A stretch of DNA of 26,565 nt from Candidatus Zixiibacteriota bacterium. Its GTDB lineage: Bacteria > Zixibacteria > MSB-5A5 > GN15 > FEB-12. The notes beneath the pieces are model-generated. The model worked only from the letters and a program-made list of their open reading frames with translations, was not told the DNA's origin and ran no database searches. Shown here piece by piece: positions 1-25,200 of this stretch. The stretch spans positions 1-26,565 of the forward strand of contig JAOZPL010000001.1 of NCBI GenBank assembly GCA_029932795.1, given 5' to 3'. Position 1 is the first letter of the stretch; each line of letters begins with the position of its first letter. The position numbers and the translations under genes are program-made.

Positions 1-1032
1 GCCATTTAGAGTAACTTTAGTCCGTTCACCCACGGTCTGGTCAGGGCCTGCGTCGGCCACCGGTGCATCATTCACGCTGTTTATGGTTATAGTTACTGTT
101 GCCGGATCCGACAGCCCCCCACCGGGGTCCGGAACATAATAAGTAAAGCTATCCAGGCCAAAATAATTTTCTGCCGGAGTGTAGGTTATAGAACCATCAA
201 CCGTATTGACAGCAACAAACCCATTGGATGGATTACCGGCTACAGTGACTGTTGCCGGATCAATCAGGCCTTCCACGTGGAGGTCGTTCTTCAGTACATC
301 AATTATAACGGGAGTATCCTCGTCGGTCTCAACCGTGTCGTCAACAAGCTGCGGGGAAGGGCCTACAAGGGTGACATCGTCGATTTGAACGGAACTACTT
401 GTGTCTCCGAAACCGAGCAGGTCAAAATACAGGGTGACAGGCTGCGCTTCAGCGACAGAGCTGAGATCCAACGTTACGGTGACAGGCAGCGTAGGCGACC
501 AGGATTCACCGCTGGCGCTTTCCCACGACCCAGTGACGTGGTCAGCATAATAAAGCACGCCTGTTTCCTGAAGGTTGAAAAAGGCATCGGTGCCTGCTGG
601 CATAGATGTGATAGTGTAACCGATCGGGTTCCCTGTTGCTGCATTTAGCAAAGCGACTTCAAAGGCGTCTGGAGTCTCGCCCGCCAAGTTTGGCCCAAGT
701 TTCAGGTCCGTCAGGGTAAACTTAAGAGCAATGGTCTCCGCCGGCAGCTCAAAGGACTGCCAGAGACTGGTTAGATATTCGTCACCTTCCCCTAATACTG
801 CTTTACCATCACAGATCAAAACATTGCCTGAAGTTGACCATCCAAAATCCGGGCCTGACTCGCTGACCGAGAAATCGCCGTTTACAATGCCAGCCCTTCC
901 GAAAGCGGGGTATGGCAAAAGCGCAATCACCAGGATCAGGAGAATAGATGCACAGGGGTTGAGATGTTCAACGGGTTTAAGCCGGCCAAATTTCCCGCTC
1001 CCGGATGATAAGTGAAAAAGATTCATTTGCAT
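1..1032 (-). CDS. Secreted Ig-like/PKD domain protein (signal peptide, unassigned ~170-aa N-terminal domain, Big_9-type domain, PKD-like domain); 3'-partial, at least 344 aa
   Basis: Translated by hand: MQMNLFHLSSGSGKFGRLKPVEHLNPCASILLILVIALLPYPAFGRA-GIVNGDFSVSESGPDFGWSTSGNV...TLYFDLLGFGDTSSSVQIDDVTL-VGPSPQLVDDTVETDEDTPVIIDVLKND...ITYTPAENYFGLDSFTY...ATVTITINSVNDAPVADAGPDQTVGERTKVTLNG. There is no stop in 344 codons. The ORF track misses it because the stop lies outside the window. An alternative ATG is at 1026. Confidence 0.93.
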   Translation of the reverse strand, partial: MQMNLFHLSSGSGKFGRLKPVEHLNPCASILLILVIALLPYPAFGRAGIVNGDFSVSESGPDFGWSTSGNVLICDGKAVLGEGDEYLTSLWQSFELPAETIALKFTLTDLKLGPNLAGETPDAFEVALLNAATGNPIGYTITSMPAGTDAFFNLQETGVLYYADHVTGSWESASGESWSPTLPVTVTLDLSSVAEAQPVTLYFDLLGFGDTSSSVQIDDVTLVGPSPQLVDDTVETDEDTPVIIDVLKNDLHVEGLIDPATVTVAGNPSNGFVAVNTVDGSITYTPAENYFGLDSFTYYVPDPGGGLSDPATVTITINSVNDAPVADAGPDQTVGERTKVTLNG

Positions 1033-1255: not shown

Positions 1256-4200
1256 CTAACCTGCTGCGTCAAGGGTCAAAGTATATCCTGTGCTGAAGTT
1301 GACAAAGCCGGCTCCCCCGATCTTGATAAAGTAGGTTCCCGCTACCAGATTGTTAAGGCTCAGCGACGCCAAGCCTGCGTTTCCGGCAGCGGCGCGCAGT
1401 TCCCTGCCATGCTCGTCCATGAGTGTGAGCATCAGATCGGGCTCACTACTTTGATAGGTAAGTTGGACCATGTCCTGGGTACCACCGGATACCGGCAGAT
1501 CGAAACAGAACCAGTCCACGTCACTGCTGTTATGAATGGTCAGGCCTGAAAGTTCTGCATGTCCGGCGGTCAGGGTTACATCAGAAGCCGTGTCTCTGCT
1601 GTCGTTTTCTTCCAGGGAATCCGGCTGAGGGAGAACAACCATTCCTGATCTCGCAGTGTTATCCCCTTCAACCGGCTCGGTAGTTTCAGCAGGGGGTTTG
1701 ACCATAACCCCAAGGTAATAGCTTCCCGGCCCAATCGCTGCCAGGTCAAGCGCTTCTGTATGCGTTACATCAGCTCCAGCGTCAAGTGCGCTCATGTTCA
1801 CTGATTTCAACAAGGTGTCTGAAACAGGGTCAATCGTTGAACCAGTTGATATATAATACTCGACGGTAAATGCCTCGCTTGCTTTATCGCCAAAATTGGC
1901 GATCTTTGTTGTCACATCTATATTGCCATCGGCAACCTGGCTTTCGTCAATCTGCATCGATTCCACACCCAGGTTCGGTCCCGCTGCATCCGGTGCTGTG
2001 ATGCTCAACGTATAATCATAATGACCGCCAAGACTGCCGACGACCAGGTAATATTGCCCACCGCTCACCCCGTCGAGACTGATCTGATAGTCCCCGTCGG
2101 CTACCTTTTCCCCGTTAGCAACTGAGTTCATGTACCTGTCATAGAGACCAAGCATCAAATCGCCTTTCGAATCATCGAATGTAACTTCAATCTGATCCCC
2201 TGTGGTACCATCTCCGCTCATGCGGAATACCATCATGTCTTGATCGTATACACTGTGGAGATTGCGATCCACCGAATAGGTTCCCCTGACGACTCCAAGA
2301 TCAATAAACCAGTTGTTTGCCAGCTCTTGTGTCTCAAGACTATCCGGGGTACCCGCCACAAGTGCCTGTATCTCGCCCACATTGTCTGTCTCATTCAGCT
2401 CATCAACCTCGCTTGCGGGATCAACAACTGCACGAACTATAACCTCGGTATCCGGAGTAAAATCAGGCACGGATATTGGAACATCAATGATCAGTTTTTC
2501 TCCCGGGGCAAGAACACCAACGGTCACAGCACCAAGATTATAATCTGTACCGGCTGAGACAGCATGGAGTTCAAGCCCAAATGACCGCGCATAATCTGCA
2601 CCATAGTTGCTGACTGTGACATACGCATGAGAATTGTCAGTACCGGGAAGGAGGTCACACTCAGGTGCCAACCGAATATCTTCCACTGCAAGATTGGCTT
2701 TCTCCCGTTTTGCGCTCGTGAGCACAAGGCTGTATTCAAAACAGGCTTCATCTTGTGGAATAACCTGTAGGTAATATTGTCCGGGGCCAACGCCTTCTAA
2801 TTCAAGCGTCGCCAGCCCCGCTGTTGGATCTACATCTGCCTCTTGCACAATCCAACCTTCGTTATCCAACAGGTAAAGGTTAATGCTGCCGGCTTCATCT
2901 GCTCGTTTTAGCTGAACCGCATCTTCAGCAGTTCCGGTCTCACCGAGCTGGAAGGCAAAGACATCTGCATCCCGCATAGAGGCCAGGTTCAGGGCAGGGA
3001 GCTCGATATCATCCACCATGCCGCCCAGGTCAAAGGCTTCATAGATGTTCTGATTTGACTCGCACCTATCTGGAGGCAGTACAATTTCAATCGGGTAGAG
3101 TGCCTCGTTGTCAGATCGTATCGCTTCGCTCACGTTCTCCCGGCGGTCTGCAATAAACCCGAAATAGACAGGGCCGACAACTGTTTCCGGCAGAGCAATG
3201 CTGAAGGTCTCACTCCATGTTTCTCCAGACTCAAGCGCCGGAACCATGAAGGCAAACAATGTCCCATCTCCAGGATCAAGCTTGTCATCCCGACTCCAGA
3301 CCAGGGCAGATTCTGCTTCAGGAGAAGCAGTATTTCCTGCATTGGTCACTGTCAGCGTGAGATCCACTACCTGGCCGGGTAGTATGGCAGCAAGACCGCT
3401 GTCACTGTCAATGGAGGCAACCAGGGCTGCCTTTGAAGACTGCGGTGCTGTGAGCGAAACCGTGTAGCCAACACCGAGCTCTTCGTTGCCTTCAACCACC
3501 AGAACGTATTCACCTGCCGGCAAGCCGCCGAGGTCTATTTCACCAGTGGATTGATCCGCAAACACCAGCTCACGCAGGGTACTGCCGGAGACATCAATCA
3601 ACCGGGCCTCTACATCTGGATTAGTAACATCAAACAGGACTTCAATCTTGTCGGACTCACCTGCTGATTCAATCGTTCGGAACCGGTAGTAATCCCGGTC
3701 ATTGATGTCGGTCAATGTCATAGATTCAACGGTAGAGGTGCCGGCGACAACTCCCAGATCTGTTGCGGTTACAAGAGAGTTGTTGTCGGTTCCGTCATCA
3801 TACTGATCAGGTATGGCCATGGTCCCTCGGTTTGGTGGAATTTTCGGAGGCCATACATCATAAGGCCCGGTGAAGACATTATCCGTTTTGAAAACAACCT
3901 GCTCCCAAACATCCTGCTTGAAGAATTCCCAGAGTTCATAGCTTTGCAGCTTAAGAGAAATGTTCATTGGGAACTGAATCTGAGGATTTAAGGGTGATGT
4001 CATGTAAGGCCACGTAACGGCGATACCCAGCGCCGCTTCAGCCGTGCCGATGACTCCCGCTACTCCAAATGCCAGATTGGCTTTCCCGACAACCCCGACT
4101 GTGCCCTCGATTGTCAACTTAAATTCCTTGAACATAGTCTGGAGAGCATTATTGTTGACCTTCATGCCCGTTGTCGTCTCCGTCTTCAACTGGTAACCAA

Positions 4201-7200
4201 GCTCAACGCCTGCGGCAAATTGAACAACTGCTCCAAAAGGTGGCAGATTATAGAAATAGTTCCATTTCTGAGGGTATGTAGTAGTAAGGCCGACGGACAT
4301 CTCTCCCTGGCGCAGATTCAGGTCTTTATCTATAATGAATGGTTGCGAGGTAATGGAAAAGGTATATGAGGGCTCATCATCTGGTTCCCATCCTGTGGTT
4401 CCCGGCTTACTCCAGCTATAATCCTTATTCTCGTCGCTTTGAAGGAATTTCCAGATCCCACTCAACCCCGGATTGCTTCCTGCAAACTCCCGGACCTCAC
4501 TGTAAAAATTCGCAATCGAGGACACATTAATCTCATATTTTGTCACCCCCATCGCATTCAGAAGTGCCTGGGCTGGGATATTCAATTGAAAAACATTAAA
4601 GCCGAAGAGTTCGAGGCGGAGCGTCGGTCCGGCGTCCTGGTAGATCACCTCATTTTCCAGATTAAAGGCAAAATGGAGATGCATACCCAGCTTGATGCCG
4701 TTATCCTTGCCAGCTAAAAACAGAACGCTTGCCGGTATCTTTTCATGCCATTTCCGCATAATGTTAATCGCTTCCACCCAGTAAGCGTTCATCTTGTCGT
4801 TCCAGGTAATCCTTCGTTCCTCATCAGGATTACCCTGATGTTTTTCAGGATTTATCCAGTCCGGCATCTTGAACGTGTGGATGATGTAAGTCGCCTGGGC
4901 AACTACCTCGCTGTGGTTTGAAACTTTGTATGTGAGTTCCGTCCCGTCTGGAATCGTTCCCATGTCAAGCGTGAAACGATACAGGTTATTTTGGGCGGCT
5001 ACTTTCTCCGCCTTGATCTCCGCGTTTCCCAGCCATGCTTTGACTTCCGTGGTGTTTGTGACAATCTCATCCCTGAGTCGCAATTCAAATACATTATCAA
5101 GTTTCACCCCCCGGATATATCTTCCAAATTCAAAATCAAGCGGATCTGCATCATATTTGGCCGTCAAGAGGGCGGTCCTGATCTGGAAGAAGGTCGTGTT
5201 ATTGCTTTCGGTGTATTCTTCGAACTGGTTGTCTGGATCCAGTTTGACGATGTACCAGGTTTGCTCCCTCGCAGGGAGTCCTTCCATGAATGGCAGGTCC
5301 ACCGTGTGTTTGCCCGGGCCAAGCTTATCACCGCGTAGTGTCCATGTATGTAAGGATTCTTTGAAGAGAGCGGCATCGAGGTCGGGTCCGTCTGCCTTCC
5401 AGAGTTCAAGGTTAAGGGGCTGATCCGGAAATTTACCTGTAACCATGTAGGTAAGATGAATCATCGGGTAAGAAAACATTTTGTTACCCTTTTCCAGGTA
5501 AGTGACCGACCGGGCGATAAAATCTGTTGGCGCATCAGGGCTGGCGGCGATCCCTGAAGGGTGAGTGCCCGCTTCGATAATACCCTTTTCAAGGCTTATT
5601 CCGTTCTCATTAGCAAAGCGGTCAACGGACCTATCAATCTTCTGGCCTTTGGATACGTAATATGTTTGCATCGCTTCGGCGGCCTTCACAAGGTCATCGA
5701 TGTTGTAGTAGACAACCTGGTTCAGCCCTTTAAAAGAAGCCATGATATACATGTTGAGAGGATCGACAGTAATCTCGTCAGGCCAACTTCGCGGAAATTC
5801 CCTGGTTGCACCAATCAGCTTGGCTTTTCGGGGTTCCAGAGGATCGCGGATAATCCCAATGTTTCCGCCGTGATCAAGATACGGATCACGAGAGAAGTCG
5901 GTATCACCATTGAAGGTACAGTTACCGACCACAAAAGCGTACTTGTAATCCTTTGTAAATGCAATCGACTCAATATTGTTGATGTCAAAGTAATTCTTGG
6001 CATTCCAGGTTTCCCTGATCTTCAGTTCCAACCCCGTCATCCATATCGGGTAGAAGGTGTTAACCAACTGGTGCGTCATGGATGTTTCCAGTGTTTCAAC
6101 CCCGCGGTTCACAAGCTTGCGGATCTCCTTGGCGCGCTCAAAATCCATGGCAACATGATGGGATTCTCTGCCAGAGCAAAGATCCACCACCAGCATGCCC
6201 TTGCCGTCATGCCCACGGACAGCAACAGCGACCTGGTCAGGATCATTGCCAGCCGTAACTCCATAAGGCTTAAAACCCGCATCAATTCTGTCGAATTTCA
6301 TTGAAGCAGGTCCAAGAATCCTGCCGTAATAGAGATAGCCAGGCTTGTCAGAAGAGAAACCAAAGTCGCCGCCGTACCAGTGTGATTTCGCACCGGGACT
6401 GGCCACTGCAAGCCACCTCAGCTTCGTTGTTTCATCTGCTTTTGTGATGGCAATCCCGGTAAGACCGGTAATAGTGTTCTCATAAGGCTTCCCCGTCACA
6501 TCGACGCTTCCCAAATAGGAGAAGTTATCATCTTTGGTTTCAACCATGTAAACCCATGGTCCGGCTCGATCGGTTATGTAGCAGATACCGGTATCCTGAT
6601 CGACCGCCATAAACCACGGTTGCGCTTGGGCATTGCCGAGCTTGATCCGGTTCATGCCCTGAGTGGACGGCCGAGCTGGGTCATCGGGAATCGTATCGAT
6701 TTCACGGAGTCCCAGGGCATCGATGACTGAAATCGTTCCCTCGCCGCTGTTCGAGACAAAAACCCTCAATCCGTCAGGGCTTACAACAAGGTCAGAGGGC
6801 CCTTTGCCCACGGGGATAGTCTTAATAACCTGTGGTCTGTCCTTGGCAGCCGGATCGATGACCGAGACAGTGTTTGAATGGATATTAGCCACCCAAATAA
6901 AGCTGGGTACTTCGATGTCCGGACTCACGGCATAACTCGAGATCCACTTGTTTATCGTGCGGGGGTCCTTGCCGGGAGAAAATTCATACCGTTGTACAAG
7001 AAGTTCAACCTTTACCCAGATCTTCCCTAAGGGCAGGCTCTCGGGGACAGAAACCTGTATAGTGTTGTCCTTTAATTGCACATCATCCACGATGTAGCGG
7101 TCGCCTGGACGGAGGAAGCAATCCTGCAGGCAGACCAGGTCCCTCCTGGGATAGAGATTCACATGAAGGAGGCTGGGGTCGTCTCCGAAGTGCATCCCCT

Positions 7201-10200
7201 GGATCGTGATAGTAGGCGATTCGCCTACCTGAAGAGACGCCCGCTCAATGACCGGTGAGTAATCCTGGGGCTCGGGATCATCTACATCCACGTTAACCTC
7301 GAATATATCTCCTTTATTGAGGGAAGGAACCGGCAGGGCTGCCATTGTGGCTGTCCCATCCTCTGCCAGGCGCCAGACGCGGATCTTGGTGGTTGTCAGT
7401 GGAACGGGGAAGATATTATCAAATACAGCATTGGGATAGACAAGATATGACTGACCACCTGCCATAACTTCAACTATCATGTCGGGATAGATGGAGACCA
7501 CCTTCATGTTTGCGTGGTCTTTGTCCATGCAGAAAAGATATGTCCCCTCTGACTGTCCACCCCCGTATGGAGGCGATCCTGTATGGGCCAAACCGGACGC
7601 ATCAACCTCAGCCCTGTCTACCAGTTCCCATCTATCTACCGACTGCCCCGGCCCTGTTATAAGTTTTCCTGCACGGAATACGAATAAGACATCGCCCTGA
7701 GTTGCACCATCGGGTGCGGGAACCGCCATCCCTAATGGATTTGAGAGGTCTGCATTCTGAAGATCCAACTCGAATGCCTGAACAAACTGAAAGCCGCCCG
7801 GACTATTATATGGGAGCGATGATTGATCGATCGTCTCGATAGTTACCTGTTGCCCGGTCAAGGTTTCCGGCGGGATATAGACGTGGATTTCGTCACCGTT
7901 TTTGATAATCCCGCCTTGATCGCCTACTGTGTCTCCGCTTAACGCCGCCGCCTCAATGCTGATGGAAAGTTCCTGGCGGATTGCGCCGTTAATTACTATG
8001 ATGGTTGTCGCCTGGCCGGCTTCGCCGACAGCGGTGATCAAACCATCAGCCGTAACAGTCGCTATTGCATCATCACTGCTGGTGTAAGTTGTACCGGCCG
8101 AGGCGGTGGCCATATCGATCCTGTTACCCGCCTCATCAACCACCCCGAAAATCACCTGGCGGGTGCTGCCCGGCTCCATCACATATCTATCGGGATAGAT
8201 ATCGTAATCAGCAGGCTGCTCCAGGTCTCCAACCCGAACAGCAGCAGCCGTATGGAAGGAGGTTCCCTCTTTGCTGACAACAATGGCAGTTGAGCCTTCA
8301 GCCCGTGCCCAGACATTTCCTGTTGCATCGACTACCGCTACGGTATCGTTTTGTGAGTGCCACAGCGCATATCCTACCGGAAGCGGCATGACACCACCGT
8401 CTGAGAAGGCCCCGTAAAGAATGAGGCGTGAGGACTCGCCTGCATCCAGGTTAAGCACCGCCTCGCTTTCGCGCAATTTCAGCCCGACCAAGAACGCATC
8501 CGAGATCGTGACAGTAAATTTAGCAAAATCCGACCGACTGGTTCCGTCATCGGCAAGAAATTCAAACCCGGCGTCTCCGGTGTAACCTGCTTGCGGGGTA
8601 AAACTAACGGTGTGGCCGTCACCAGCAAGATGCACCGTACCGCCGCTGACGTTCGAAATGACAAAATAGAGAAAAGAGCCGTCAGGATCAGTTGCAAGCT
8701 CAGCCAGATCGATGCTTATCGGGATCTCCGGATACGTGGTTGCCGAACCGGGCGATAGCTGCGGAGGACGGTTGGCAGTGAAGCAAAAGTTTGTTTCAAG
8801 GTAATAGCGGTCAGTATCATTGATCGTACCGTCACGGTTGACATCGGCACCGGTCTCATAAGATGCATCCCCTGAACTTGAACCGAAGGCTGTCTCAAAA
8901 AGGGTGGTGTCTGTCCCATCTACGAGGCCGTCTCCATTTACATCCCCGGCAATGAAGAGTTCCAGTTCATATTCGCCGCTCGTGGTCTCGTCCACGCCTG
9001 AAACTTCGATAATATGCAAGCCGGCAGCAGCCAGCGTAAACATGGCAAAGCTGCGATCAGTTTCGAGGGCCTGCTGCTGCGCTGCCGCCCCATCAATAAC
9101 CGGCAGAGCAGGACTGAAACCACCGGAACCGGTCACGAGGACTCCCAGGGTAACAAATCCCGAGCTTGCCGCATTCAGTTCATCATCTGTCAGCAGGAAG
9201 GCAAACCGTCTGCTCTGGCCAGCGGTAATTTCTCCATTTTGAGCCCCAGCTATGGCATCGCGGGTCGAACCGATGACGAGATCAATCGAATCGGTTCCGA
9301 CAAGTTCCCCTGTTCCGGAATAGTTGATCCTCAAACTGGATGGACCATCCGGATCAACCACTGCCGTGAGAAGGTGCATACCGCTGTTGTCGTAACCGTA
9401 CCATGTGCGATGTCCGTTGCCGAGATCGTTGACCGAGATCAGGGCACCGCCGGAATCATAACTATATCGAATCTGCCCACCATCGGGGGCGGTAATAACC
9501 GTTATGCGCCCTGCCTCGTCGCGCTGGAAGGTGAGATGGCCGTCAGAGGCAAAGATCCCGGCATTAGTGACGATGAGATTAGCCTGCGCCGTCCTGATTC
9601 CGCGGAGCATGCCGTCGGCACCGTAGGTATAAGCGGTGCCATCGGGTGATGTAAGCATGAAGGCATCTTCACCAAAATGCATGGCATTTGCGGGATTATA
9701 AGGCAGGCCTGTTCCACGCTCGTAAAAGATACCCCGGGCGAGTTCAAGCGCCGCCCCACTTGTCTCAAGCTGCCAGTCAATACCTTCATCCGGGGTCCAG
9801 GCGGGAGAATAATAGGTTACACCAGTCTGCTCATAAATGTGCGGTGTAAAGGTGAAACCGGCACTGCTCCCATCCGGCAGCATGACATATAGTCGCGTAT
9901 TCTGGCGATAACCGGAGAAAAGGCCGCGCTCCTCTGCACCCGTTGGCCGCAGGTTGGTCGTGGGCGAAAGTTCCATTCCAAGGAATGACCAGCCGTAACC
10001 GAATATGCCAGCGCCTTCCCCTGCAAGCGAACTGTAGGTCCTGGTCAGATCAAGGGAAATGCTGCCAAGCGTGACCGAGAGGTCCGTCCGGCTGTTGGTG
10101 AATTCACCGGTTTTGGCAGCCGAATTCATCTCGATGATTCGGCTTACGATAGAGGTGCGCCCCCCGATATCCCTGGCTGTCAGCCTCAGCTCATAGGCAC

Positions 10201-13200
10201 CATTTTTGATCTTCTGAGGATCAAGCTGAGCCAGCAAGCCTTTTTTAACTGCGCCCTGCCCGGAAGCAATAGCCGAAAATTGACCCGCACCGAGAGGGGC
10301 CAGTTCAAGTCGCCAGTAATCCAGGTTGTTGTCTGAAATCGTGCCGATGCAATCAGTGGCCGAACTCAAAACGGCACCATCGCCAGGCGCAAAGAGCTTG
10401 ATCTTTGGGGCTTGGCTGTCGGCAGCGTCACGAACCTTGAGATCAGAATGCACTACTACAGTCTGGCCATCCGCATCCACAGCCGTGGCCGTTACCAGGA
10501 AGTGGCCTGGATTCTCAGGTATAAAGCTTGCCCGGCCGTACCTGTCAAAAGAAAGGGGCTTTCCATCAACAGAAACTGTCAGTGTCTCGATGTCCGCAAC
10601 AGAGTCGGCAATCGGATGGATGAGAACACTCTGGCCGGCAATAACAGGGAAGCTCGGCGTCAGCTCGATGGTCAGGGAGGGTTCGATCGGGGTAAAGGAG
10701 ACCACTAATTGCACGCTTTGGCTGCAGCTTAGTTCCCCGTCAGAGACGGTGAAGCGAACATCGTGCTTGCCAACCTGGGTTGCACCGGGCGTCCAGGAAA
10801 ATACACCTGTTTCAGCATCGAGTGCGGCACCTGCAGGCAGGTTTTCTGCCGAGTAGCTGAGGGTAGTGCCGGTATCGGCATCCCTTCCTGGCACCCTCAT
10901 TTCAAACGGTTGATCTACAAGCAGAACATGACCGCTCATGTGATCAATTTCCGGCGCCTGGTTGACGTTTAAAACCTCTATCTTCGCATCGTAGTAATCA
11001 GACAGGCCCCCAGAGTCCTGAGCCATGAACCGGATGGTATAGGTGCCGGCCTGATCAAAACCTGGTGTCCAGTAAAATATCTGGGTATCTGGATCAAAGG
11101 CCGCCCCCGCAGGCAGCACAGTGGCAACCGAATAACTGAGGGCATCGTTGTCAAGGTCACCTGCCATCACCGTCAACTGGATGGTCGTTCCCTCAAAGGT
11201 AAGCATATCGCGAATCGGGACAAAGGTCGGGGGGCGGTTCGTGTTCTCAACAATGATCTTTACGTCTTCTGCGCTTGTCCCCGCACCATCCGTTGCTTCA
11301 AAGCGCAGATTGTAAGTCCCGGACTGCTCGTAAGTAGGCCTCCAAACAAAGTCACCTGTGAGATTATCAAAGGCCGCCCCCCTGGGAAGTCCTAACACCC
11401 GATAACTGACGGAATCACCATCCGGATCGTCGGCCTGGAGGGTGAATGCCAGTTCATCCTGCTCGCTGACCTGCCTGGTCCCGACAGGCATGAGAACAGG
11501 GGAGCTGTTTGTGTCCCGCACGGTGATGTCAAAGCTCTGTGAATCCGAAAGGGCGCGAACTTCTTCCCCGTTTCCACTGTCTGTAACCGTGAGCGTAATG
11601 TGATAGGTCTTTCCGGCATCTTCTGAAGTAGGCGTCCAGGAAAAAAGCGCCTTGCCATAGATAACCGTAGAATCAAACGTTGCTCCTGAAGGGAGGCCGG
11701 TAGCACTATAGGTAAGTGGATCCTCATCCAGATCGCTAACCAATACTTCAAAGGAGGTCTCCTTGCCGACCAAGGCCACGCGCGGTACCTGCCGTTCCAT
11801 GACAGGCCTGGCATTGGGGGCGACCACGCTCAGGATAAAAGAGGCCTCACCGGTAAGGACCGCCCTCGGATCACCATTGCCGTCATCAGAAGCCGTTACC
11901 TTAATCTCATAGTCGCCGCGTTGAGCTGTCAGCGTCGGAGCGGCACGAAGCGTGGCCGTACCATCACCGTTATCCGTAAAGGTCACAAAAGAAGGAAGCC
12001 CTGATGCACTGATAGCCGGGATGGTCCCGTCTGCATCGGTCGCCCGGATAGTCATTTCGAGAATATTTTCTTCACCTTCGTGGACTTCGAGCGAGCGATT
12101 CTCAATCGGCTCAATGACCGGAACAGCATTAGCATCACGGACAACAATGTTCAGCGTAACCGAATCCGTGGTCGGGATGCCTGTACCGTCACCATCGTCC
12201 GTGACAGTAAAATCAATATTGTAGGTACCAGCCTGATCAAAGGCAGGGGTCCAGCGGAAGATCTGGGTATCGGTGTTAAATGTGGCCCCTTCGGGCAGTG
12301 TGGAGTAATCCCAGGATAGTTGAGGGAGTAGCAAATCGGCATCAACGGTGCCATCATCGAGCATCATGCCGATACCCAGGGGGTTGTCCGGGTCATTAGC
12401 AGCAATATGGATGACAAGTGACTGCCCCTCATAGGTCTCCCACCGGTCAACAGGCTCGAAGGAAACCGGACCGTTAACGTTTAAAACATGGATCGTAACC
12501 CGCTGTTGCGTCGTGCTCCAGGGATCGCTGACGGCAAATTCGATTTCGTACTCCCCATGCTCATCATAGTTCGGCCTCCAGCTAAAGAGCCCTGTCTGCG
12601 GGTTGAGATAGGCACTACGGGGCAACCCTTTGGCACTGAAAGCAAGCTTGTCTTTATCGGCGTCACGAGCCTGCAGCTGGATCTCGAGGTACTGGCCTTC
12701 CTGGATGGTACGTTCCATAGGTTGCGCCAGGAACGGCGGTTCGTTGCGGTTTGCAACGGTGATCTCAAATGACCGGAAGGTACTTGATATACCGTCTCCT
12801 GCATATATACGCACATCGCTGTAATGGCCAGCTGACCGGCCGTCCGTCTGCCAACGCAAGATCTTCGCCTCTGAATCAAACAATGCCCCCGGCGGCAGGT
12901 TCTCAGCCCAGTAGAGAATCTGATCCCCGTCGGGGTCCGATGCTCCAACGCAGAGTTCCAGCAGGTCGCCTTCTGTGATCTGCTGGTCGGGTATCGGTAA
13001 AATGACCGGCGGGCTATTCACTCCGGTTACGTCAACGTCCCACTTCTGGGAAGCAAACCCGCCGCGTTCATCGAATACGCGGACCTCGAATTGAACGGTT
13101 GAAGGCGAATCTTCACCGGGCGTCCAGCAAAGGGCACCTGTTTCTGCATCCATGGTAGCACCGCGAGGCCCTTCAACTAGAAGGAAAGATATGTTGGACT

Positions 13201-16200
13201 GCTCGGGATCAGAGGCCGAAACCGAATAGAAATATTCTTGATCGACCTGTGCATTCTCTCCCGGCGTTGAACTGATGATTGGAGGCAGGTTTGCGCCCAC
13301 ATCAACATTGACCAGCGTGATAAGATCGAAGGCCAGGTGATCCGGGTTGTGAACCGAAAGTGTGAGCGTGATCGTTGATTCACCTGGGGCAAGTTTTTCC
13401 GAATCGGCACCTGAAAGCTCGCAGTAAGGATACCCCTGGTCTGTTGTTCCGTCTGCATCTTTTAGGGTGGCCGTAGTTCCGGCAAGCCCGGTAAAGATCA
13501 AGCGATATGGTGGGAGGATGTCAAAATCAAGACTGTTGGTGAAGCTCACATCAAAAGAGATGTTTTCACTCTTCCGGTCAAAACGGGTGTTTGAAAAATT
13601 CGGTTTCAGGCTGTCAGTGACATCGACCATAACCGTAAAATCGACGGTGTATGCCTCAGGCAAGGCAAGCCCCAGCGCACTCCTGACATTAGGAAGAATG
13701 GTCAATTCATAAAGAGCTGCCTCCAGAGGCTCGAATTGCAGGGTGACAGTCCGTTTGACTGGATCATAGTCTGCGCGGCTGATCGTGATCCTGCGGTCTG
13801 TCGTCTTGTTTACCAGGCGATAATTGTCTGGATTCGTCACCGACTGCGCGTCATCGGCCGATACACTCCACATGTCGACATCAAAGCGAATATCGGCGTG
13901 ATTCACGACCGGCAGCACACTCATGCCGTTGACGGGTGTTGTTGCCAGCACAACCGGAGGGGTTATCGGAAAGAAAACGTCCACCTGGCCGCCCTGGGCC
14001 ACATAGAGCCTGCCGCTGGTGCCAATGTGCATGAAGCCGCCGCGTGTTCCGCCATCAGCAATCTTGACGGACTTAAGGGTCACAAGGTCGACCATGGTCA
14101 GGAAGCCGGCATCGCCATGGGTGATAAACATCAGATTCTCGAGCGGAGTCTCTGCCTGGCCGACGGCAATACCAATGCCGGGGGCCGCCGGTATCAAGAG
14201 AATCTCAGCGTTGCCGCGCTTATCGAAGCGAAGGACATTGCCGTCTTCGGGCCATGAAGTAGCGTATAGTGTTCCTTCTGGACTAAACGCCAGGCTGTGC
14301 ACACGGGTTGATGAAAAGCTCGAGAATTGTTCTGTCCCGGGATCAAAGATCTCAACCCCTGTGCTTGTAGCCAGGTAAAGCAGACCTGAATCTGGATGGA
14401 CAGCGATACCAAGCTCGATTCCGTCACCATAACGTCCAAGGATTTGACCGGTGACAGGATCAAGGCGAAGCAGGGGCCCGCCGCCGGTGGTAGCCCAGAG
14501 CCGCCCAGTTTGATCAAAGACCATGTCATAAACAGGAACGTCGAGCGCTGCCAGCGGAGAATCGGCTGCGCCGCCGGCGGCCGTAAACCGCCATATCTGG
14601 TTGCGGCCCTCACCGCCGCTGACATATACGCTGCTTCCGTCAGGGCTGAAGGCGATACCAAGGGAACCAATTCCCGCCCCCGACTGCGGGATGCCCGTGG
14701 CAAAGGCGCTCATGGTAAAGGGGTCAAAGACACTGGCAAAGGCCGGCGGGCTGCCGCCTGAGACACCGGCGGGAATCTGTTTCATCGCCTGGACAAATAG
14801 CGGGTTGGTTGCCGGAACATCAGGGGGTGTTACTGTCGTCAGGTTATGCTCAGGGGTAAGCTGGGCGGCAGTGGGCGCGACTCCCAGGTTGATGCCAGGG
14901 TTGTAAGCAGGCAGATACACGCCTTCAGGCGCTTTTTCTACATTGCCTGCATTATCGGCCGCCAGCACAATGAACTCGGCAGTAGCGCCAACCGGGGCAG
15001 TGTACTCGGCCTCTGTATCCGTGATCCGGCGCTTCCATGCCCACCAGGAGCCCCCGTCCTGGCTAATATAGACAGTGTAGTCCTTCACACCGGATCCATC
15101 CGGATCGTCGGTAGCTTCAAACGTAATCCGGTAGGACCGGCTCCCGGTCTTGCCCACGCCCAGATCCTGAACCGAGTAGCTCGTGGTCGGCGGTATCATA
15201 TCCAACGTTGCTGTTTGAATATTCGTATCAAGGGGGGTGCCGCCGTCATAGGTTATGCGCGCACTCGCCTTTATCTCTGTTCCCGTAGTAAGGTCAATGC
15301 CCTCGGTGTACTCCGGCCAGGGCTTGATCGAGTAAGTGACGCCCCCCCATTGTGCGCGATCCGTATTTGGCAGAAGCAGGCCTTTGTCCGGATCAGAAAT
15401 CAATTCTCCCGTCTGCGGGTCAAGGGCATTGAAGGTCCAGATGGCAATCCTGCTCACCACATCCACACCTGCGGTTACCCGCAGGACAAAGCCACGTTCA
15501 TCAACAAAGTCAAAATCACCGCTGAAAGAGGCCCGGTATTCCGGCAGGTGTACCTGGATATCGCCCAGAGTGATATCGCCGAGGGTGAAGCTGCGGACAT
15601 CAAGATTCTCATCGAGTTGCTGCATGATCTGGATCTGCTTCACTGCCTCCTTGCCGGTGGCAGGGTTTTCAAACTTGATCGTATAAGGCAGATAGGTGTC
15701 AGCCGGGACAAAATTCTGTGGGCCGTATCCGGTAGGACCGACTATGCGCACTGCATCCGAACGTTCTCCGGTGAGGCCGAAGAAATCCCGGAGGTGAGGC
15801 TCCTCGACGGGGGCCTTGTCTTCCCGGATGCCGAGCCCGACCTGTACCCAGAAGGACTCAAAATGGGTTTCATGGGACAGCCCCATATCAAAGTCCGCGG
15901 CATCAGGCATGGTACCCGGGGCTACCCGGGCGTCTTCATCGTGACCGTACCATTTTCTGACCAGGGCAAAGAAATCGACAAGGTTGCCTTCCTCAATGAT
16001 TTCGTTGCCGGTGTCAATTCCAAGAAGCCCGGCAGTAACAATCGACATCAGGCTGGAAATCGGCGGTAGCGTGTGTATATCAGGGGGAACGTCCTCCGGA
16101 CGAAGCTGGCCGGAATCTTCAAGCCCCGAAAGGTAAAGGTTTCCCCACTGCTCGGCATCGGCTGCTGCTTCAATCAAAACCCGCGGCGCAAAGGGATCGT

Positions 16201-19200
16201 CCAGGATGGCCCGGCGGTACTGTTCCGCCAGTCCAAGCTGGTATGATACGTATTCCTCGCTGGTCATGGGGGTTGCGGCGGCGGCAATAGCGAACTTATA
16301 GGCAAAAGCTTCATACGGCCACTGGGGATCGACATTGGGATCGTGCAGATCCTTGAGGGCATTCGGATCCTTGGCAAGGATGTCTCTCATCTCCGGATAT
16401 ACATCAGCAGTGAACGTTAACCCCATATAACCGCGGTTGATGAAATCGAACGTAAACCCCGGGGCCATCAGTGTGCCGTCAAGATTGAGTATGGAATCAA
16501 GCTCAGCCCATGGCACATCAGCTATCTCGGGCTCTCCTGCCAGATTCGTCCGGAAAATCAATCGGTCGCCGACCGGCCAAACCTCCTCATCCCCCGAATA
16601 CCATTCTTCGTCATCGCTCATCTTTGTCTGCACGTACTCGTACCAGTCGGTATCATTGAAGATGTGCGGCACGCTGAACTCGAAATGGACGTAAGGCGCA
16701 TCCACATTGGTCAGGCTGTAAACACCGATACCGTACCAGCCGACATCGCCATATTCGAGTTCTCCGGGCCCGCCCATTCCGACAGTCAGATCAAGCGGCT
16801 TTGCTTCTTCCACAAGATAGCGGTAAGGCATCCGGGCCGTCTGGCCGTCGGGATTGGTGACCTGCACATCGTAGAGGCCGTGAGGTGCGTCTGTCAGGTC
16901 AAAGGTTGCAATGATCCGGGTGGCATTGACAATCTCATAGCTGATCGCCTCATACTCGGCGATCTGGGGCCGGATCAGCTTGACGATGGCGCTGTCAGAG
17001 AATCTGGCCCCGAGGACCTCAAGCGTAACGTACCTGGAATCACCACCCGTCTCGGGGCGGACATCGCGAATACCAAACGGTAGCAGGCGAGCTTTGACCG
17101 TGATTCCACAGGTTATCGGCTCGGCGTCCGGGTCGAGCTTCCGGGCTGCATCCTGCCAGCCGGCGCTCCGCACAAGGATGTAATATGTTCCTGCCTCGGT
17201 CAGCGGCACCCTGGCCACCTGATCGCTCCAGAGGTGGCCTTCAAATGCGGCATCGTAGTGGATGGAGTCCGGCAGGCCCTCGTAGCGAACATAAAGCTCA
17301 TTTGCAATCGTCTTGTCATCGGCAACAAGGCTCACCTCCAATGTCTCTCCGGACGGGACGGTGATCTCATAAAGCCGTTCTCTGCCGACCGTGAACGTGT
17401 CCTTGAAATCGACATCAAGCTGCAGCGTGCCTACCGAAACATTGAGGGTGTCGCTGCTTGCCAGCTTGTTGTTGGCGTCGTTTGCCCCCTCGTTGATATC
17501 ATCAAATATATCCGTGCGGACAATGATCCGGTAATCACCGGGAAGGACCGCCGGCAGGATGCCGGTGAGGGAACCTGTGTAGCTTTCATCCGGCGCGAGA
17601 TCCCGAAAGATCGGCCTCATTTTGCCAGGATTGTCCGGATCGGGCTCTAACTCCACCCGCCCGATCAGCTTGTCGCCCAAATCCCATACAGCGTCGGCGG
17701 AGATATAGAGAGAGTCGGCCCAGTATCCCTTGGCATGTTCATTGTTGGTAGTCACGTTCTTGACCGTGTAAGTGACCGTAATGGGCTCACTGACTTCACC
17801 CGTCTCAGGAACGGTGATTTCTTCAACCATGAGATCTGTGGGTGGAGCGAGATCGATGATCATCGGCACGCTGCTGGGAGCGGCATTATTGTTTTCGTTC
17901 GCTCCCTCATAAACAAAGCCGTATGGATGGATCTTGTTCGGGACATCTGTCAGGACAAAGACATAGTAGGGGCCAAGAATCCCGCGAGGAACATTGAAAG
18001 TCATGTCAACGCTGTAGCTCTCACCACTGGCCAGGGCGCCATCATGAAAGACCTGGCCGAGATAGTGATCGCTGTTTACGTCGAGGAACTCGTCGCGGGA
18101 AAGAAAGATGTAGTCTGACCATTTGTTCTGCCGATCAGGAACGTCGCCAACGGACGCATTCGTAACGGTATATGATACATCAAACCGGCGGCCGGTTATA
18201 GCGTGCCCTTCTTGCGCATCTTCGTTTCCGGTAAATGAGACGCTTTTAACCTGGAGGTCGGGCGAGTCAACAAGAGTCACGGAAATAGAGTGGTCGATAA
18301 TATTGTTGGCTTCATCCTGAAACTCCTTGACCTGTCCCATGAGAGTCCACTCGTTGGCAGGCCATGGGGCCTGAATGCGATGGTAGCCGGAAGTTTCCGG
18401 ATAGGGCAAGGCGCTCCTGAAGTATTCATGAACACCGTATGGAGAGTCGATATAGACAAGGAGGTGGAAATCACCCTCGATATCATCGGGCAGGCGAACA
18501 GTGGTGGAGATATCATAATTTTCGCCTATATCGAGTACGCCATGATGGCGGGTTTCCCCGATCAGCATATCGTAGAGATCAATCGATGAATCCTGAGAGA
18601 TGTAAATGCGATCCAGCCAGAACTCACCCCGTGTAGCCCGCGTACCAGCGTTGGTCACTGTCCATGAGATATCAATTGTCTGACCTGAATTGGCCGATTC
18701 CGGGATCTCCATCGAGCCCTCAAGCACCTTGAGATCAGGTTCCCTGTAAATGACCTGCATGGCAGCGGAGTTCACATTGTTTAGTTTCTTTCTATTCGGG
18801 TCCCCTTCAAAAACACGATTCTTGAAATCCGTGGGCCAGCCGGGAAATTCGCTTTCACTTATACCATCGATGCGGCCACACCATGCCTCTGCGGCCGGGT
18901 CCCGGTCACTGAAGACATAAATATACCGGCGGCCTTCACTTCCAAGAGGAAGATTCATTGTCGTTGAAGCAGCGTAACTGTCTTGCGGGTTCATGGGCTC
19001 ATCCCGGACGTGAACAACGCTGCCGACATATTGCGCACGGGAAAAGATAAACGTCGGATCAGGAGAGACGTAGATGTAATCGGTCCAGCGTTCGGTGCCT
19101 TTGTAAACCGGGTAATCGCCGATGTTCGTGACCGTCCAGCTTATTTTTACCTCTTCGCCTGAATCAGCGGTCTCCGGAACAGTCACGGAGGTTACTTGCA

Positions 19201-22200
19201 GATCGGCCGGTACAGGTATCACCGTGCTGGGTATGGCCCGGTCGTTGTTTTCCGTGAACGGGCCTTCCCATACTTTTCTGACTTCAACCTCATCCTCACC
19301 CCACAAAATATAGCGTAGCTCGGACTTACTCAGGGTGTCGATCTTGGCGTAGACCTGCGCAGGTGTCATTGTCTCAAGATCACCAATCTTTTCGGCAATG
19401 CGGTCGGTAACGGCGGCCATCTCCAGCAGAAGCTCATCTTCATCGGTCAAGACGATGTTCGGATCGACATTGGTCTCAACAATAAAATAGCTGCCTGAAG
19501 CGCTCGGAGGGAGGGTAAAGTCCAGGTGCTGAGTATAACTTTGTCCACGCTCCATAGCCCCTTCATGGAGAACGGCGAAGACGAGTGTTTTGTCCTGTCC
19601 GGCTTCATCTTTTGATACATAAATAGCATCGGCCCAGCGGTCGAGATCGGTGACGTTTGAACCGTTGTTTACAACCGTCCACGATATTGTCACCTTCTCA
19701 CCACCCAGAGCGGTCTCGGGGGCATCAATATTGGTTACTTCGAGATCGGCCGGAGGTGTGTAAAGGATGGTCAGCGGCTTATCTGCGGTCTTGAAGTTGT
19801 TGTTGTCCACGGCGGTAGGATCGTCCGGGTTGATATTGACATCAAAGGTAAGTTCAAAGACCTGGCCCCAGGCGTCGGTATAAACCATGAGTTCGTAAAC
19901 ACCCCGGATGTGTTCCGGAATGGTGCCGGTAATGGTCCCCTCGTAAAATTCACCCACTTCGAGAGCGCCGGTGTGAGAGGCCGATCCGATCCTGAAGTCC
20001 GTGTCCCCACCTGGTTTGGTCTTGTCTGCCGTAAGCCAGAGAGAATCAGTCCAGCAGGCGGGGTATGTGATACCGGCACCCTTGTTGGTAACGCGGTAAT
20101 AGACCGTAACCTGCGTGCCGTCAAAGGCTTCGGTGGGTCCGTGAACATCGGAAACCACCAGATCGGGCGGCGGGACAGCCTGCACATTGATGTTTATGGG
20201 CCGGGCAAGCACGTTGTTGGCCTCTGCCGGATATTCGTCGACCGAATCGGAGGCATCCACCTTGACGAGGATATACATCGGGCCCTGGGCAGCCTGCGGA
20301 ATGCGGTAGTGGCCGGAAGAGCTGTACTGCTCGCTTACGGTAAGGGCTGAGCCATTACGTTCCCAGCCGAGCCGCATATCCCCAGGATCGAGTTTATTAT
20401 CCAGCGATAGATAGACACCGTCGTACCAGCGGCTCCCGCCCGTGGGAGTCTTCACCTGGCCGAGGTTGGAAACCACCCAGTAAACATCGACCACAGCCCC
20501 TGCATTGACAGTTTCGGGAATATCCATGGACGTAACCTGAAGGTCGGGGCGGTCATGGAGCTGAATCGTAATGGAATCGCTCAGATCGTCATTGTTGGTA
20601 AGGTCAGGATCGATGATCTTTCCTTCCACGTCAGGCCTGACAAAGATTTCATAGACACCGGTGATATGCTTTGGCAGGCGGAAGTTTTCGGTCCTTGTAT
20701 AGGAAAGGCCAGCACCAAGTCCCAGGCTTATACTGAAGGTACCTATCCTCACCGCCTGAGAACGGTCCCCGCCGGGAGCAATAAAGACGGCGTCCGTCCA
20801 GGGCCCTTCGGCAGTGTCCGGCCCGTTGTTTTTGACCTTCCAGGTAACGTCAATGGCATCGCCGTCTGAAGCATTGTCAGGCGCATCGATACTGAGGATT
20901 TCGAGATCAGAGCGGGGGGCCACGGTGTATGTCACCGAGACTGCACTTGATGCAGTGGTGTTGTTGTCGCCATAGATGAACTCGTAAGGGCCGCCGGTCT
21001 TTACAAAAAAGTACTGATCGATATCTGTCGTCTGCGTGATATCGAGGTCAACCGGAACCGTAATCTGAACAGTTCTTGTGTAACAAGCGCCAACACCCAG
21101 GTTGCCCACCCGGCTGAAGCGATCTATCAATTTCCAGCCAGAACCATCCGCATTGGAAGACATGTAAACATAGTCATACCATTCAGGAACAGAAGTCTGG
21201 CCGATTCCCTTATTCCTTACCGTCCAGCTCAGGGTCATCGGTGTACCGGTGGTTGCAGTCTGTGGTGCGTCAACGCTGTCTACGACGAGATCGGCGTAGG
21301 GCCGCGGGGTGATATCGAGCAAATAACCGGGGGTGGCTGAATTTGCCCCCGTGTCATCATGCTCATAGACAACATCATCAGCATCAGTTACGACAAATAG
21401 CGTAAAACGACCCTGCGTGGCAGCGGCCAACTGGATGATCTTTGTCTGGGTATAGGACTCTCCTGCGGGCACCGGACCGGGATTTCCGAAACTGCCGATC
21501 TCAACATCATCGCCGTTTCCGAGTGTATCATCCCGGGAAAGTATAATCTTGTCCGTCCAGGCGGTCACCGGGCCGGTTCCGTTGCCCTCGTTTGAAACAG
21601 TCCAGGAGACGGTCAGGTCAGCCGGGTCGCCGATGATAAGTTTTACGCCTTCGGTGATATCCTGACCGTTTGTGGTAATGGTGGAGACAGCAAGGTCGGC
21701 ATAGGGGGCAAGGGTTACATCAATGGGATCCGAGGCACAAATATCATCTTCGAGGCCGCTGCCTTCGACGACAATATCTGCGGCATCAGGCTTGACCAAA
21801 ATATAGTAGGTACCCGTAATGCCGTTTGGAAGGGTTACGTTGACACTGCCATTATAGCTCTCGCCTGAAGATAGGGTGCCGGTATGGGCGTGTTCTCCAA
21901 GAATGATATCACTTTCATCAAGAAGTTCGTCCGTTGACAAATAGATTTTCTCTGTCCAGCCGGATGGCGTTGGGCCTGTTCCGGAATTTTTAACTGACCA
22001 GGAAACCTCAAAGCTTGTGCCTGACTCGGCAGTACTTACCGCCGTTACCGACCCGACAGTCAGATCGGGATGCTGGAGCGCTACATCACCTGAAACGCCG
22101 ATGTTGTTCTCTTCGCCGGCCCGTTCATAGACCTCTGTGTTTGCGTCGGTCACGACGAGAAACTTATAGCTTCCATCGGCAAGCAAGGGAATCGTTATCG

Positions 22201-25200
22201 TTTCTGTTCTCGTGTAAGAGTTGCCAGCATTGAGGTCTTCGGGATTGGTAAAGCTGGCAATCAATGCGGCGCCATCTAACAAGCCGTCCAGAGAAAGATA
22301 AAGGCGATCCGTCCAGCAGGCATGGGCGCCAGCGGTACCAGTATTTTCGACGGTCCAGGACAGGATTGCAGGCTGGCCGACAACAATAGCTGCCGGAATG
22401 TTTAGCTCAGTCACCTTCAGGTCGGGAACCTCCGACTGGGTGACCGAAACCTGGCCGATACTTTTTCCGACATTGTTACCTTCAGCCGCAGGTTCATCGA
22501 CATTGTTATATACATCCGTTTTTGCCAATACCCAGTATGTGCCGCTCGTGACATCAAGAGGCAAGAGGTCTTCCGGCAAGGTAACAGTTTTTGCTGCGCC
22601 GTAGCTTTCCTGTGATCCCAAAACGCCGGTGTGCAAAAAGGTGCCCAGGTTCAGATCACTCTCGTCCAATGTGTCGTCGGTGGAAAGATAAAGAGTATCA
22701 TACCATGTTGAGCACTGTGTGGTAGCAGTGCCAAAATTGGTAACACGCCAGGCAACATCGACCGATCCCCCCGTCTGAGCGGTCTCAGGTACCGTTACCG
22801 CATCCACTATCAGGTCGGCGGGCGGCACGGCATATTGAACCTCAATGGGGCCTTCAAAGCTATTGTCGGTCTCGTCGCTTTCAGCTACCTGATTCCAGAC
22901 ATCCACCTGAACGAAGAGCTTGTAATCACCAACGACCCCCCATGGGACGTTCAAGCTCACGGTTCGATCAAGACTTTCCCCCGCTGCAAGTGGATCGCTC
23001 TGGGAAATTCTTCCGATCTCAATATCGTCATAATTCCCAACATACTCATCGGATGAAAGTATTGCGCGCTCATACCAGGGAGCATCGGCCGTTGATGACC
23101 CCTCATTTGTCACCGTCCAGGAGACAACAAGGTCTTGGCCATTTGAAATTACAGATGGGTTTGATGTAACGGTGAGATTCAAATCGGGTGCGTTGAGGGT
23201 CATCACCTGAACAAAGGTATTATTTTCTTCGTCAGCCTCTAACTGATACTTGTAATAATCCGCAGCCACAATAATATGCCAGGTCCCCGTCAGCCCCCCG
23301 GGAATAGTAACCGAGTCATCCACCGTGTAGCTTGCCCCGGCATCAAGGCCCCCTTTGTGGAAGACTGACTTCAAAGTTCGGTCGCCGGAGTCAAGTACGT
23401 CATCTGAAGACAGGAACACGACATCATACCAGCGCGCAGTTGCCTTGCCTTGCCCGTCATTTGTCACCGTCCATGAAAGGGCAAGTCCTTTTCCTGCCGC
23501 AGCAGAGGTGGGAATGGCGGCGTTAAGAGCCAGATCGGCGGCCTTGATATCAATGGAAACAGCAGTGATGTTGTTGTCATTATCCGCCTCACTCTGACGA
23601 TTGTAGGCATCGGTGCGAAAGAGGAGATACTTTGTCCCTGTGCCTATCGTCTTTGGAATCGGAGATACCGCAGTTACAGGCTTGGTGACGCTGTATGTTC
23701 CGCCTGCAGCAAGGCCGCCTTCGTTTTTCCAGTATTCGGAGGCAAGGAGAGTGTCGTCGGAATCGTAGATTTCATCTGCAGACAGGAAGACCATGTCCCA
23801 CCAGTTGGAAGTTGCGGTGCCGCTGCCGGTATTTGTCACTGTCCAGTCAAGTGAAATCAGCTCACCCCAGGAAGCGGAATCAGGGGCGGTTGTAGCGGTC
23901 ACCTGGAGATCGGCGGCATTAAAGGTTACTTCTCTTGCAAGGAGATTATTCGTCTCGACTGCTTCTACCTGATTGTCTGAGGCGTCTGTGACAAAAAGGA
24001 AATAAGCCGATCCGGTAAGTCCCGCCGGAAGGGTGACCTCTTTTTCAATGGTATAGTCTGTGGCCGGGTCTAAAGGAGAATACTCTCCGGCGTAAACGGA
24101 GACCACCAGGATATCGGTAGAGGTGTCGAGTGCCTCATCACTTGACAGATAAACCCGATCATACCATGTGGCCGCCGCAGCTCCCGCGCCCTGATTTGTT
24201 ACAGTCCACGATATGGCGGCGCGCTCCCCCCAACTTGCCGTTTCAGGGGCTGTTGCCGCGGTTACCTGGAGGTCCGGATTGCTGATTGTGACCGATACGA
24301 CCTCTGTGTTGTTACCGGTGCTGGTTTCACCCTGGACATCATCGCCGTTGACGACGAAAATGAGGTACCTCGTGCCGATACCGGACTCAGGAAGTCGAAC
24401 CTTGCGGCTGGCCGAATAACTTGCGTCAACTGGCAGCGGTGTCTGGCTGTCAATCCGCTCACTCAAAAGGAGTTGCTCGCTGCCGTCAAGCGAATCTGTA
24501 TCCGAGATATAAACCCTGTCGTACCAGTCGGCGTAGGCGGGGCTGGAACCGATATTCGTCACCGTCCATGCCAGATCAACAGTTTGCCCGACCGCTGCCG
24601 CCACCGGGGCAGAAACCGCGGTAATTTCCAGGTCGGGCGGCTCGTGAATAGTAATAGGTATGGCCGGACCGACATTATTGTCATCACTTGCTTCTCCCTG
24701 GACCTTTCCCCCATCGGCAACAACAAGCAAATAATTGTAGGCAGTCGCACAGTTGGGAAGCGTTACCTGTCTGGTTACGGTATAACTTTCACCAGAAAGA
24801 AGCGGAACTTCGTCGGCGGTGCTGAACGAAGTCACCAGTTCATCATCTCCGGTCAGCCCATCGTCATAGGAGAGATAGATATAGTCATACCAACGGGCAT
24901 TGGCGGCGCCATCGCCCGAGTTTTTTACAGTCCAGGTGACATCGATCGCCTGCTGGACGGATGCCTCTGCGGGTGCGGTAGCTTCGGTAACCGTCAGATC
25001 GGGAATCTCAATAGTGATGGCATCAGATCGGAGGAAATTGTTTTCTTCCTCTGATTCACCCTGATTCTGGCTGCCGTCAGCCATAACGAACAGGTACCAG
25101 GTACCCACAGAAACGTTTGGAACCGTGACATTTCGGGTAACCGTGTAACTCGCACCGGCATCGAGGGGGGTGAATGCCTCCACGTTTTCGGAGGCGACAA

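Follow-up and report, generated by a model that had tools for sequence, protein, structure and literature searches.

A rare, predicted all-beta domain at a fixed place in a family of giant repeat-rich surface proteins

In uncultured sediment bacteria, giant surface proteins consist for the most part of known Ig-like repeats strung together, and the few orphan domains found in such giants are the likely seat of specific function. Here, one such orphan domain is described from a contig of 26,565 nucleotides (JAOZPL010000001.1, assembly GCA_029932795.1) assigned to a Candidatus Zixiibacteriota bacterium. The window analysed is the whole contig, which belongs to a metagenome bin of 2.16 Mb in 345 contigs, with a completeness of 86.6%. 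The orphan domain lies at positions 3833–4864 on the minus strand, corresponding to residues 7212–7555 (about 345 residues) of an open reading frame (ORF) of at least 8413 amino acids. The domain family had no name; the giant repeat-rich surface proteins that carry it are of a known kind. A first-pass annotation made from the letters alone had flagged positions 3850–4850, which code for residues 7216–7550, as an unassigned beta-rich region of ~330 amino acids, Gly-rich and hydrophobic, and as a candidate membrane-active payload.

The giant ORF matches, in Pfam, a CARDB array (16 stretches), He_PIG, Big_9, cadherin-like domains, DUF6531 with one RHS repeat, dockerin, Big_2 and PPC. Since its frame runs off the contig without closing, the true N-terminus of the protein is probably missing from the contig. 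The last part of the protein, in which the orphan domain is found, and the gene that follows it are organised as follows (pLDDT, the predicted local distance difference test score, refers to the models discussed below):

1256..26497, minus strand: giant ORF, 8413 amino acids counted from the first ATG; frame open up to the contig end at 26563
5549..7498, minus strand: start of the cassette, an IPT/Ig-like region (residues 6334–6523) followed by a YVTN-type beta-propeller with a large insert (residues 6524–6983)
4865..5548, minus strand: CARDB-like domain (residues 6984–7098) and Ig-like domain (residues 7099–7211), immediately before the orphan domain; boundaries taken from the sequence, order kept in all homologues
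4511..4864, minus strand: N-lobe of the orphan domain (residues 7212–7329), about six strands and a short helix; motifs PxWxNP..H and QDAGP conserved; pLDDT 72–88
4382..4510, minus strand: hypervariable linker (residues 7330–7372), with amphipathic helix-like segments first and an acidic, disordered stretch after them; pLDDT 29–50
3833..4381, minus strand: C-lobe (residues 7373–7555), eight long antiparallel strands of 13–25 amino acids, including a G/A/V-rich hairpin at 4010–4105
1259..3796, minus strand: tail, PPC1-CARDB1-PPC2-CARDB2-PPC3-CARDB3-PPC4 (residues 7568–8413)
1..1032, minus strand: downstream gene, cut by the contig end; signal-peptide-like start, an N-domain without family, and Big_9/cadherin-like domains

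The propeller is recognised by TIGR02276 (beta_rpt_yvtn, E=8e-16), and in the tail the CARDB domains are clear in Pfam (E=9e-28) and the PPC and Por_Secre_tail matches are marginal. For the orphan domain no match was found in Pfam (scan at E ≤ 10 with the working query P0003, 366 amino acids encoded at 3779–4876 on the minus strand), NCBIfam, PHROGs, PADLOC or the PDB sequences. Nor is there a hidden Markov model (HMM) match or a repeat relation to the CARDB, He_PIG, Big_9 and PPC repeats of the same protein, and its strands are 13–25 amino acids long. The first-pass description of a beta-rich region that lacks the repeat motifs and belongs to no family is thereby borne out: this is a domain of its own kind and not another Ig, CARDB or PPC repeat. 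It occurs once in the protein and once in the genome, where no paralogue was found. At the nucleotide level, 3850–4850 holds no RNA family (Rfam), no DNA repeats and just short chance ORFs on the plus strand.

A phmmer search of 1.84 billion cluster representatives returned 9 matches in total. P0006 and P0008 are fragments from a single Desulfobacteraceae metagenome-assembled genome (MAG), P0010 is a 'tandem-95 repeat protein' of a Phycisphaeraceae MAG (MCC7205279.1), P0007, P0009, P0012 and P0013 are unnamed singletons, and P0011 is a short fragment. Another match, P0014 (E=9e-4), was rejected as spurious, being a Cys-rich repeat protein that aligns over a short low-complexity part alone. The true related clusters number about six, which places the orphan domain among the rarest that can be measured in such a collection. 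Starting word-index searches from P0003 (longer proteins), from P0009 or from P0010 brought in no further family members, scans of genome and metagenome contigs gave just 99%-identical copies of the same Guaymas contig, and a search of the ESM Atlas returned noise-level scores alone (0.75–0.82).

Few as they are, the homologues agree closely in their organisation. In a domain-by-domain global alignment, the last 2080 residues of the giant protein make up a single cassette, which is collinear in each homologue long enough to span it, in the order IPT, propeller, CARDB-like, Ig, N-lobe, linker, C-lobe, PPC1, CARDB1, PPC2, CARDB2, PPC3, CARDB3, PPC4. The orphan domain is found at the same position in P0007, P0010 and P0013 and in the partial homologues P0006, P0009 and P0012, and these six are all that reach across this position. 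Identities to the homologues are 23–46% for the N-lobe, 21–38% for the linker and 25–59% for the C-lobe, and 26–60% for the flanks, so that the orphan domain diverges at about the rate of its neighbours. Among these neighbours, the propeller is collinear and 39–60% identical in P0007, P0010, P0012 and P0013, and the seven-domain PPC/CARDB tail is present in the same order in P0006, P0007, P0010 and P0013. Because the domain keeps its position and shows identities like those of the flanks, it must have been inherited together with its neighbours and not swapped; judged from these alignments, its place in the cassette is fixed and its inheritance vertical. This strict conservation of position extends over MAGs labelled Desulfobacteraceae and Phycisphaeraceae as well as the bin of the window. 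The window protein is homologous to the giant 'tandem-95 repeat' proteins, its full 2080-amino acid cassette being collinear with P0010 at 23–43% identity per domain, and the Pfam domains upstream of the cassette in the homologues are of the same kinds as its own, as in giant CARDB/He_PIG/dockerin proteins. We know of no studied function for surface proteins of the 'tandem-95 repeat' type.

The composition of the region had been read as a hint of separate origin. It is indeed richer in K (2.5-fold, p=2e-4), W (2.1-fold, p=0.02) and F (1.9-fold, p=0.004) than the rest of the protein, as the first-pass annotation had it, and poorer in D (0.44-fold, p=7e-4), and the stretch quoted in that annotation is encoded exactly at 4010–4105 (residues 7465–7496); with 24 of its 32 residues G, A, V, L or I, it is the richest 32-mer of the protein in these residues. 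The labels Gly-rich and hydrophobic do not fit: Gly makes up 7.8% of the region and 8.5% elsewhere (p=0.7), and hydropathy on the Kyte-Doolittle scale lies at -0.15 to -0.31, the mean of the whole protein being -0.19. The guanine-cytosine (GC) content at 3850–4850 is low as noted, in fact the lowest in the ORF (0.472; ORF mean 0.533, sd 0.025; only 1.2% of ORF windows lie lower). The fall is confined to codon positions 1 and 2, however, and at the third position (GC3) the orphan domain has 0.53–0.58, which stays at the ORF mean of 0.57. The fit of the region to the synonymous codon use of the bin (-0.069) stands at the 8th percentile of ORF windows, whose values range from -0.086 to 0.050, and there are three further places in the ORF with an equally low or lower fit. 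At the edges of the orphan domain, GC3 and synonymous codon use run on unbroken. The zone that is low in acidic residues and GC and rich in K, W, F and Y is also not specific to the domain, as it extends over residues of about 6490–7480 and takes in the propeller, the CARDB-like and the Ig domains. With GC3 at the ORF mean, and with GC and a tetranucleotide profile of the contig that are consistent with the bin, the sequence statistics identify the dip as an amino-acid effect and not as a mark of foreign DNA.

Within the domain, the strands of the N-lobe carry charges on both faces. In the C-lobe, a strict two-residue polarity repeat is conserved along the full length of the strands, and the long strands of alternating polarity noted in the first reading are present in the sequence, in the homologues and in both AlphaFold models. 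When the alignment is mapped onto the modelled strands, one face of the C-lobe is apolar lengthwise in nearly all homologues and the other is polar with conserved K and E; the apolar face spans heights of 0 to 22 on strands 1–4 and 0 to 16 on strand 5 (7 homologues, with registers taken from the model of pLDDT 73). From the strand lengths we estimate this face to be about 70 Å tall, as compared with 25–30 Å for a membrane belt. At one end of the sheet lie three turns of apolar or aromatic character (LPPFG, AFGVAG and LWEFF). A dyad-run statistic was also tried but is not used as evidence, as it failed to separate outer-membrane barrels from soluble beta domains. Nearly all conserved columns of the domain are Gly, Pro or aromatic, and a polar set of the catalytic type is absent. 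No internal duplication was detected when the N-lobe was compared with the C-lobe, or the halves of the C-lobe with each other, using hhalign (probabilities ≤ 1.8%). Amphipathic helix-like segments precede the variable part of the linker in every homologue. The linker itself is about 40–110 amino acids long across the homologues, and it may be a flexible or cleavable hinge. In P0007 the corresponding segment (residues about 1083–1134, aligned to 4382–4510) contains a poly-Asp insert with a run of nine Asp.

Two AlphaFold models were examined, both provisional since the underlying alignment has 8 rows. The model of the full domain (m7c3208c1d2db) has a pLDDT of 58.8 and that of the C-lobe (mbf5267f3ede7) a pLDDT of 72.9 and a predicted template modelling score (pTM) of 0.55, the five C-lobe models scoring 64–73. 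Both are all-beta with long hairpins, in agreement with the first-pass expectation. Foldseek found no match to the PDB at E ≤ 0.001 with either of them; against BFVD, weak matches to maturation proteins of single-stranded RNA phages were all that was returned (E ≥ 0.025). With VIA-align, the C-lobe model is most similar to CymA (4d5b; Z 9.8 over 153 residues at 3.4 Å), followed by the autotransporter barrels of AIDA-I (4mee, 9.7), Hbp (3aeh, 9.6), NalP (1uyo, 9.5), BrkA (3qq2, 9.4) and EspP (8qp5, 9.3), which superpose over 145–159 residues with a root-mean-square deviation (rmsd) of 3.8–4.7 Å, values that are generic for long meander sheets. There are 17 chains at Z ≥ 8, and rank 50 is reached at Z 7.1, somewhat above the stated background of the tool. 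The alignments take in about eight strands of barrels that have 12–22, and the C-lobe is therefore modelled as an open, gently curved sheet, geometrically like a piece of barrel wall. Pore-forming toxins score lower: the best VIA-align score is Z 5.6 (RCD-1 pore, 91 residues), none are found in the top 50 of the wide search, and their Foldseek rows have TM-scores of 0.08–0.22 at E ≥ 0.03. Soluble proteins that bind hydrophobic ligands with curved sheets were matched as well (DUF3224 at Z 7.5, MTP 6.7, VtrC 6.0, vitellogenin 5.8–7.2), the lipid-transfer-like matches taken together lying at Z 5.4–8.6 with an rmsd of 4–11 Å.

The C-lobe shares with outer-membrane barrels eight long, tilted antiparallel strands that superpose at Z 9.3–9.8, an aromatic-rich composition low in charge, and the two-residue polarity repeat. 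These barrels are closed structures of 12–14 strands with an apolar belt of about 9–11 residues per strand and polar extensions, whereas the C-lobe model is an open sheet that is apolar along whole strands. In autotransporters the barrel is C-terminal, whereas the orphan domain sits in the middle of the protein with extracellular-type domains on both sides; P0003 has no match to PF03797, and a genome-wide search for this family found nothing on the contig. Beta pore-forming toxins (aerolysin/ETX-MTX2, leukocidins, MACPF/CDC, gasdermins) have long amphipathic hairpins in common with the orphan domain, which includes the Thr-rich KTETTTGMKV..., and in both a variable, possibly cleavable linker precedes the hairpins, but the orphan domain has no HMM or PDB sequence match to them. 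The lipid-transfer sheets of lipovitellin (1lsh), vitellogenin (9enr) and MTP (6i7s), and also LptD, resemble the C-lobe in being large, curved antiparallel sheets with one apolar face; this likeness is weak (Z 5.7–8.6, rmsd 5–11 Å) and comes without a sequence relation. The tests of membership applied speak against placing the orphan domain with the autotransporters, the pore-forming toxins or the polymorphic effectors.

The explanation we favour, to which we give a probability of about 0.45, is that the orphan domain is a lineage-specific, non-enzymatic beta module of two layers. In it, the N-lobe sheet and the amphipathic helices ahead of the variable linker would cover the very large apolar face of the C-lobe and so bury it, giving a big two-layer beta structure, perhaps around an apolar cavity; placed between the propeller and the PPC-CARDB tail, the module would serve as a binding unit or a rigid connector. 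It would then be neither a toxin nor a mobile payload but a constant part of the C-terminal 'head' cassette in a rare family of giant surface proteins. An apolar face of about 70 Å is better accommodated by a buried core or cavity than by a membrane belt of 25–30 Å. Also in favour are the rarity of the domain, the collinear cassette with its flank-like identities, the unbroken GC3 and codon use, conserved residues of a structural type, the single copy, the all-beta models, the amphipathic helices in every homologue, and the presence of soluble hydrophobic-ligand binders among the fold matches. Several observations pull the other way. The packing of the N-lobe on the C-lobe is not seen with confidence in the full-domain model, and no ligand or partner of the domain is known. 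Outer-membrane barrels account for every one of the 20 best fold matches of the C-lobe and for nearly all of the top 50, and with 14.2% of F, W and Y and 15.8% of D, E, K and R its composition is nearer to the Omp85, TonB-receptor and small-barrel proteins of the same genome than to the giant protein's own soluble beta domains. It is these last points, together with the three apolar or aromatic turns and a diderm genome with several Omp85-family matches, that speak for a module that inserts into membranes, either as a barrel of N-lobe and C-lobe (about 14 strands) that anchors in the outer membrane of the cell itself, or through C-lobe hairpins that would enter the membrane of another cell as a pore or anchor after their release from the N-lobe, for example by cleavage of the linker. 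We consider such a module unlikely. The apolar face runs along whole strands of 13–25 residues across the homologues and is not a band of about 10, which also disagrees with the membrane-active payload of the first-pass annotation; the N-lobe strands have their charges on both faces; there is no Pfam match to a barrel family; eight-stranded barrels are missing from the top matches; and Z values near 8–10 for long meander sheets may mean just a common arrangement. In addition, more than 7200 amino acids of extracellular-type domains come before the orphan domain and at least 860 after it, which corresponds to no known type V topology. A more specific version, for which the odds are decidedly poor, is that the C-lobe is a latent membrane-inserting segment of barrel wall, held soluble by the N-lobe and the helices and freed by cleavage or unfolding at the acidic linker, with which the giant fibre would plant a beta-sheet anchor or pore in the membrane of another cell or in the outer membrane of its own. 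To our knowledge, delivery in this manner matches no type V system or family of pore-forming toxins.

A rather doubtful alternative is a carrier or binding site for lipids or other hydrophobic ligands, with the curved sheet and the helices enclosing an apolar cavity as in large lipid-transfer proteins, grooves of the Lpt/AsmA type or TULIP/START-like wraps. Such a role would fit the conserved apolar face, given its very large size, and the amphipathic helices, which are conserved too, and there are weak fold matches to lipovitellin (the top Foldseek row, E=4e-3), vitellogenin (Z 7.0–7.2), MTP (6.7), LptD (8.0–8.6), DUF3224 (7.5), VtrC (6.0), PRELID1 (7.1) and Der f 7 (5.4). Every one of these matches is at or near the background Z with a high rmsd, however, a context of lipid metabolism is absent nearby, and a plain hydrophobic core accounts for the same pattern. 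Of the beta-pore-forming or lipid-binding function proposed in the first-pass annotation, some relation to lipid or membrane is therefore possible, as membrane barrel walls are what the C-lobe resembles best, while the pore-forming toxins score lower, at Z ≤ 5.6 against 9.8. Its further proposal, a toxin-like effector that was acquired horizontally, can be exchanged and came to lie between the PPC tail and a conserved stalk, has hardly any probability left. The lowest GC in the ORF, the distinct amino-acid composition and the missing family assignment can be cited in its favour, but the homologues have the same domain at the same position with flank-like identity, GC3 is unchanged, the codon fit is no worse than elsewhere in the ORF, the compositional zone extends over the propeller and Ig domains, and both catalytic residues and an immunity-like neighbour gene are absent. 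The remaining probability is kept for the models being wrong, based as they are on an alignment of eight rows.

In the case that the domain is a structural connector only, it adds one more domain family without a name. If it is true that a sheet like a barrel wall meets lipid or membrane, fibre-like adhesins would have a hitherto unseen means of engaging other cells. We would abandon the 'toxin payload' reading.

Some further observations concern the ends of the giant protein. The frame has no stop codon across 26497–26565, and the product counted from the first ATG begins within a CARDB repeat and without a signal peptide; the real N-terminus and the export signal are located off the contig. 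At the other end, PPC4 (1259–1603) has a marginal score as a sorting domain of the type IX secretion system (T9SS), with 30.2 bits summed for TIGR04183 and 26.8 in Pfam against a cut-off of 27. The genome has SprA and 26 Por_Secre_tail matches at E ≤ 0.001, PPC4 not among them. A role as T9SS C-terminal signal was rejected on account of the marginal score, the absence from these 26 matches, and the presence of three more domains like PPC4 in the protein; by its looks PPC4 is a PPC domain. It is also the PPC-CARDB tail, and not the orphan domain, that contains the lowest GC3 of the ORF (0.454) and its poorest codon fit (-0.083), at about 2390–3390 (residues 7706–8040).

The host of the giant gene is uncertain, although GC and tetranucleotides fit the bin. 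Contigs from the Guaymas Basin that are 99% identical to the window (QNAF01000158.1, QMMV01000314.1 and Ga0164310_10007859) carry the label Zixiibacteriota in one bin (B22_G1) and Deltaproteobacteria in another (B23_G16). Among 285 genomes of the phylum of the bin, two have the orphan domain, namely the bin of the window and one with a 99%-identical copy of the stretch, and the nearest homologues are labelled Desulfobacteraceae. It is these two phylum labels, the narrow distribution and the nearest homologues that make the assignment uncertain.

Next to the giant ORF there is no immunity-like or partner gene; the neighbour encodes a secreted Big_9/cadherin-like protein whose homologue in P0010 and P0013 is a tail fused to the giant protein. 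In blastp, its N-domain (P0002, residues 48–230) matches residues 4902–5069 of P0010 (E=3e-16) and 3797–3971 of P0013 (E=1e-12), segments that continue in frame after PPC4, so that P0010 and P0013 run on where the window has a separate gene. Going by this sequence match, what is one polypeptide in P0010 and P0013 is two genes in the window, or the reverse. Past the PPC-CARDB tail, at residues of about 3657–3700, P0013 has an HELGH motif and a weak match to Peptidase_M10 (E=0.007), which suggests that in certain members of the family the last module is metalloprotease-like, one that the window protein lacks.

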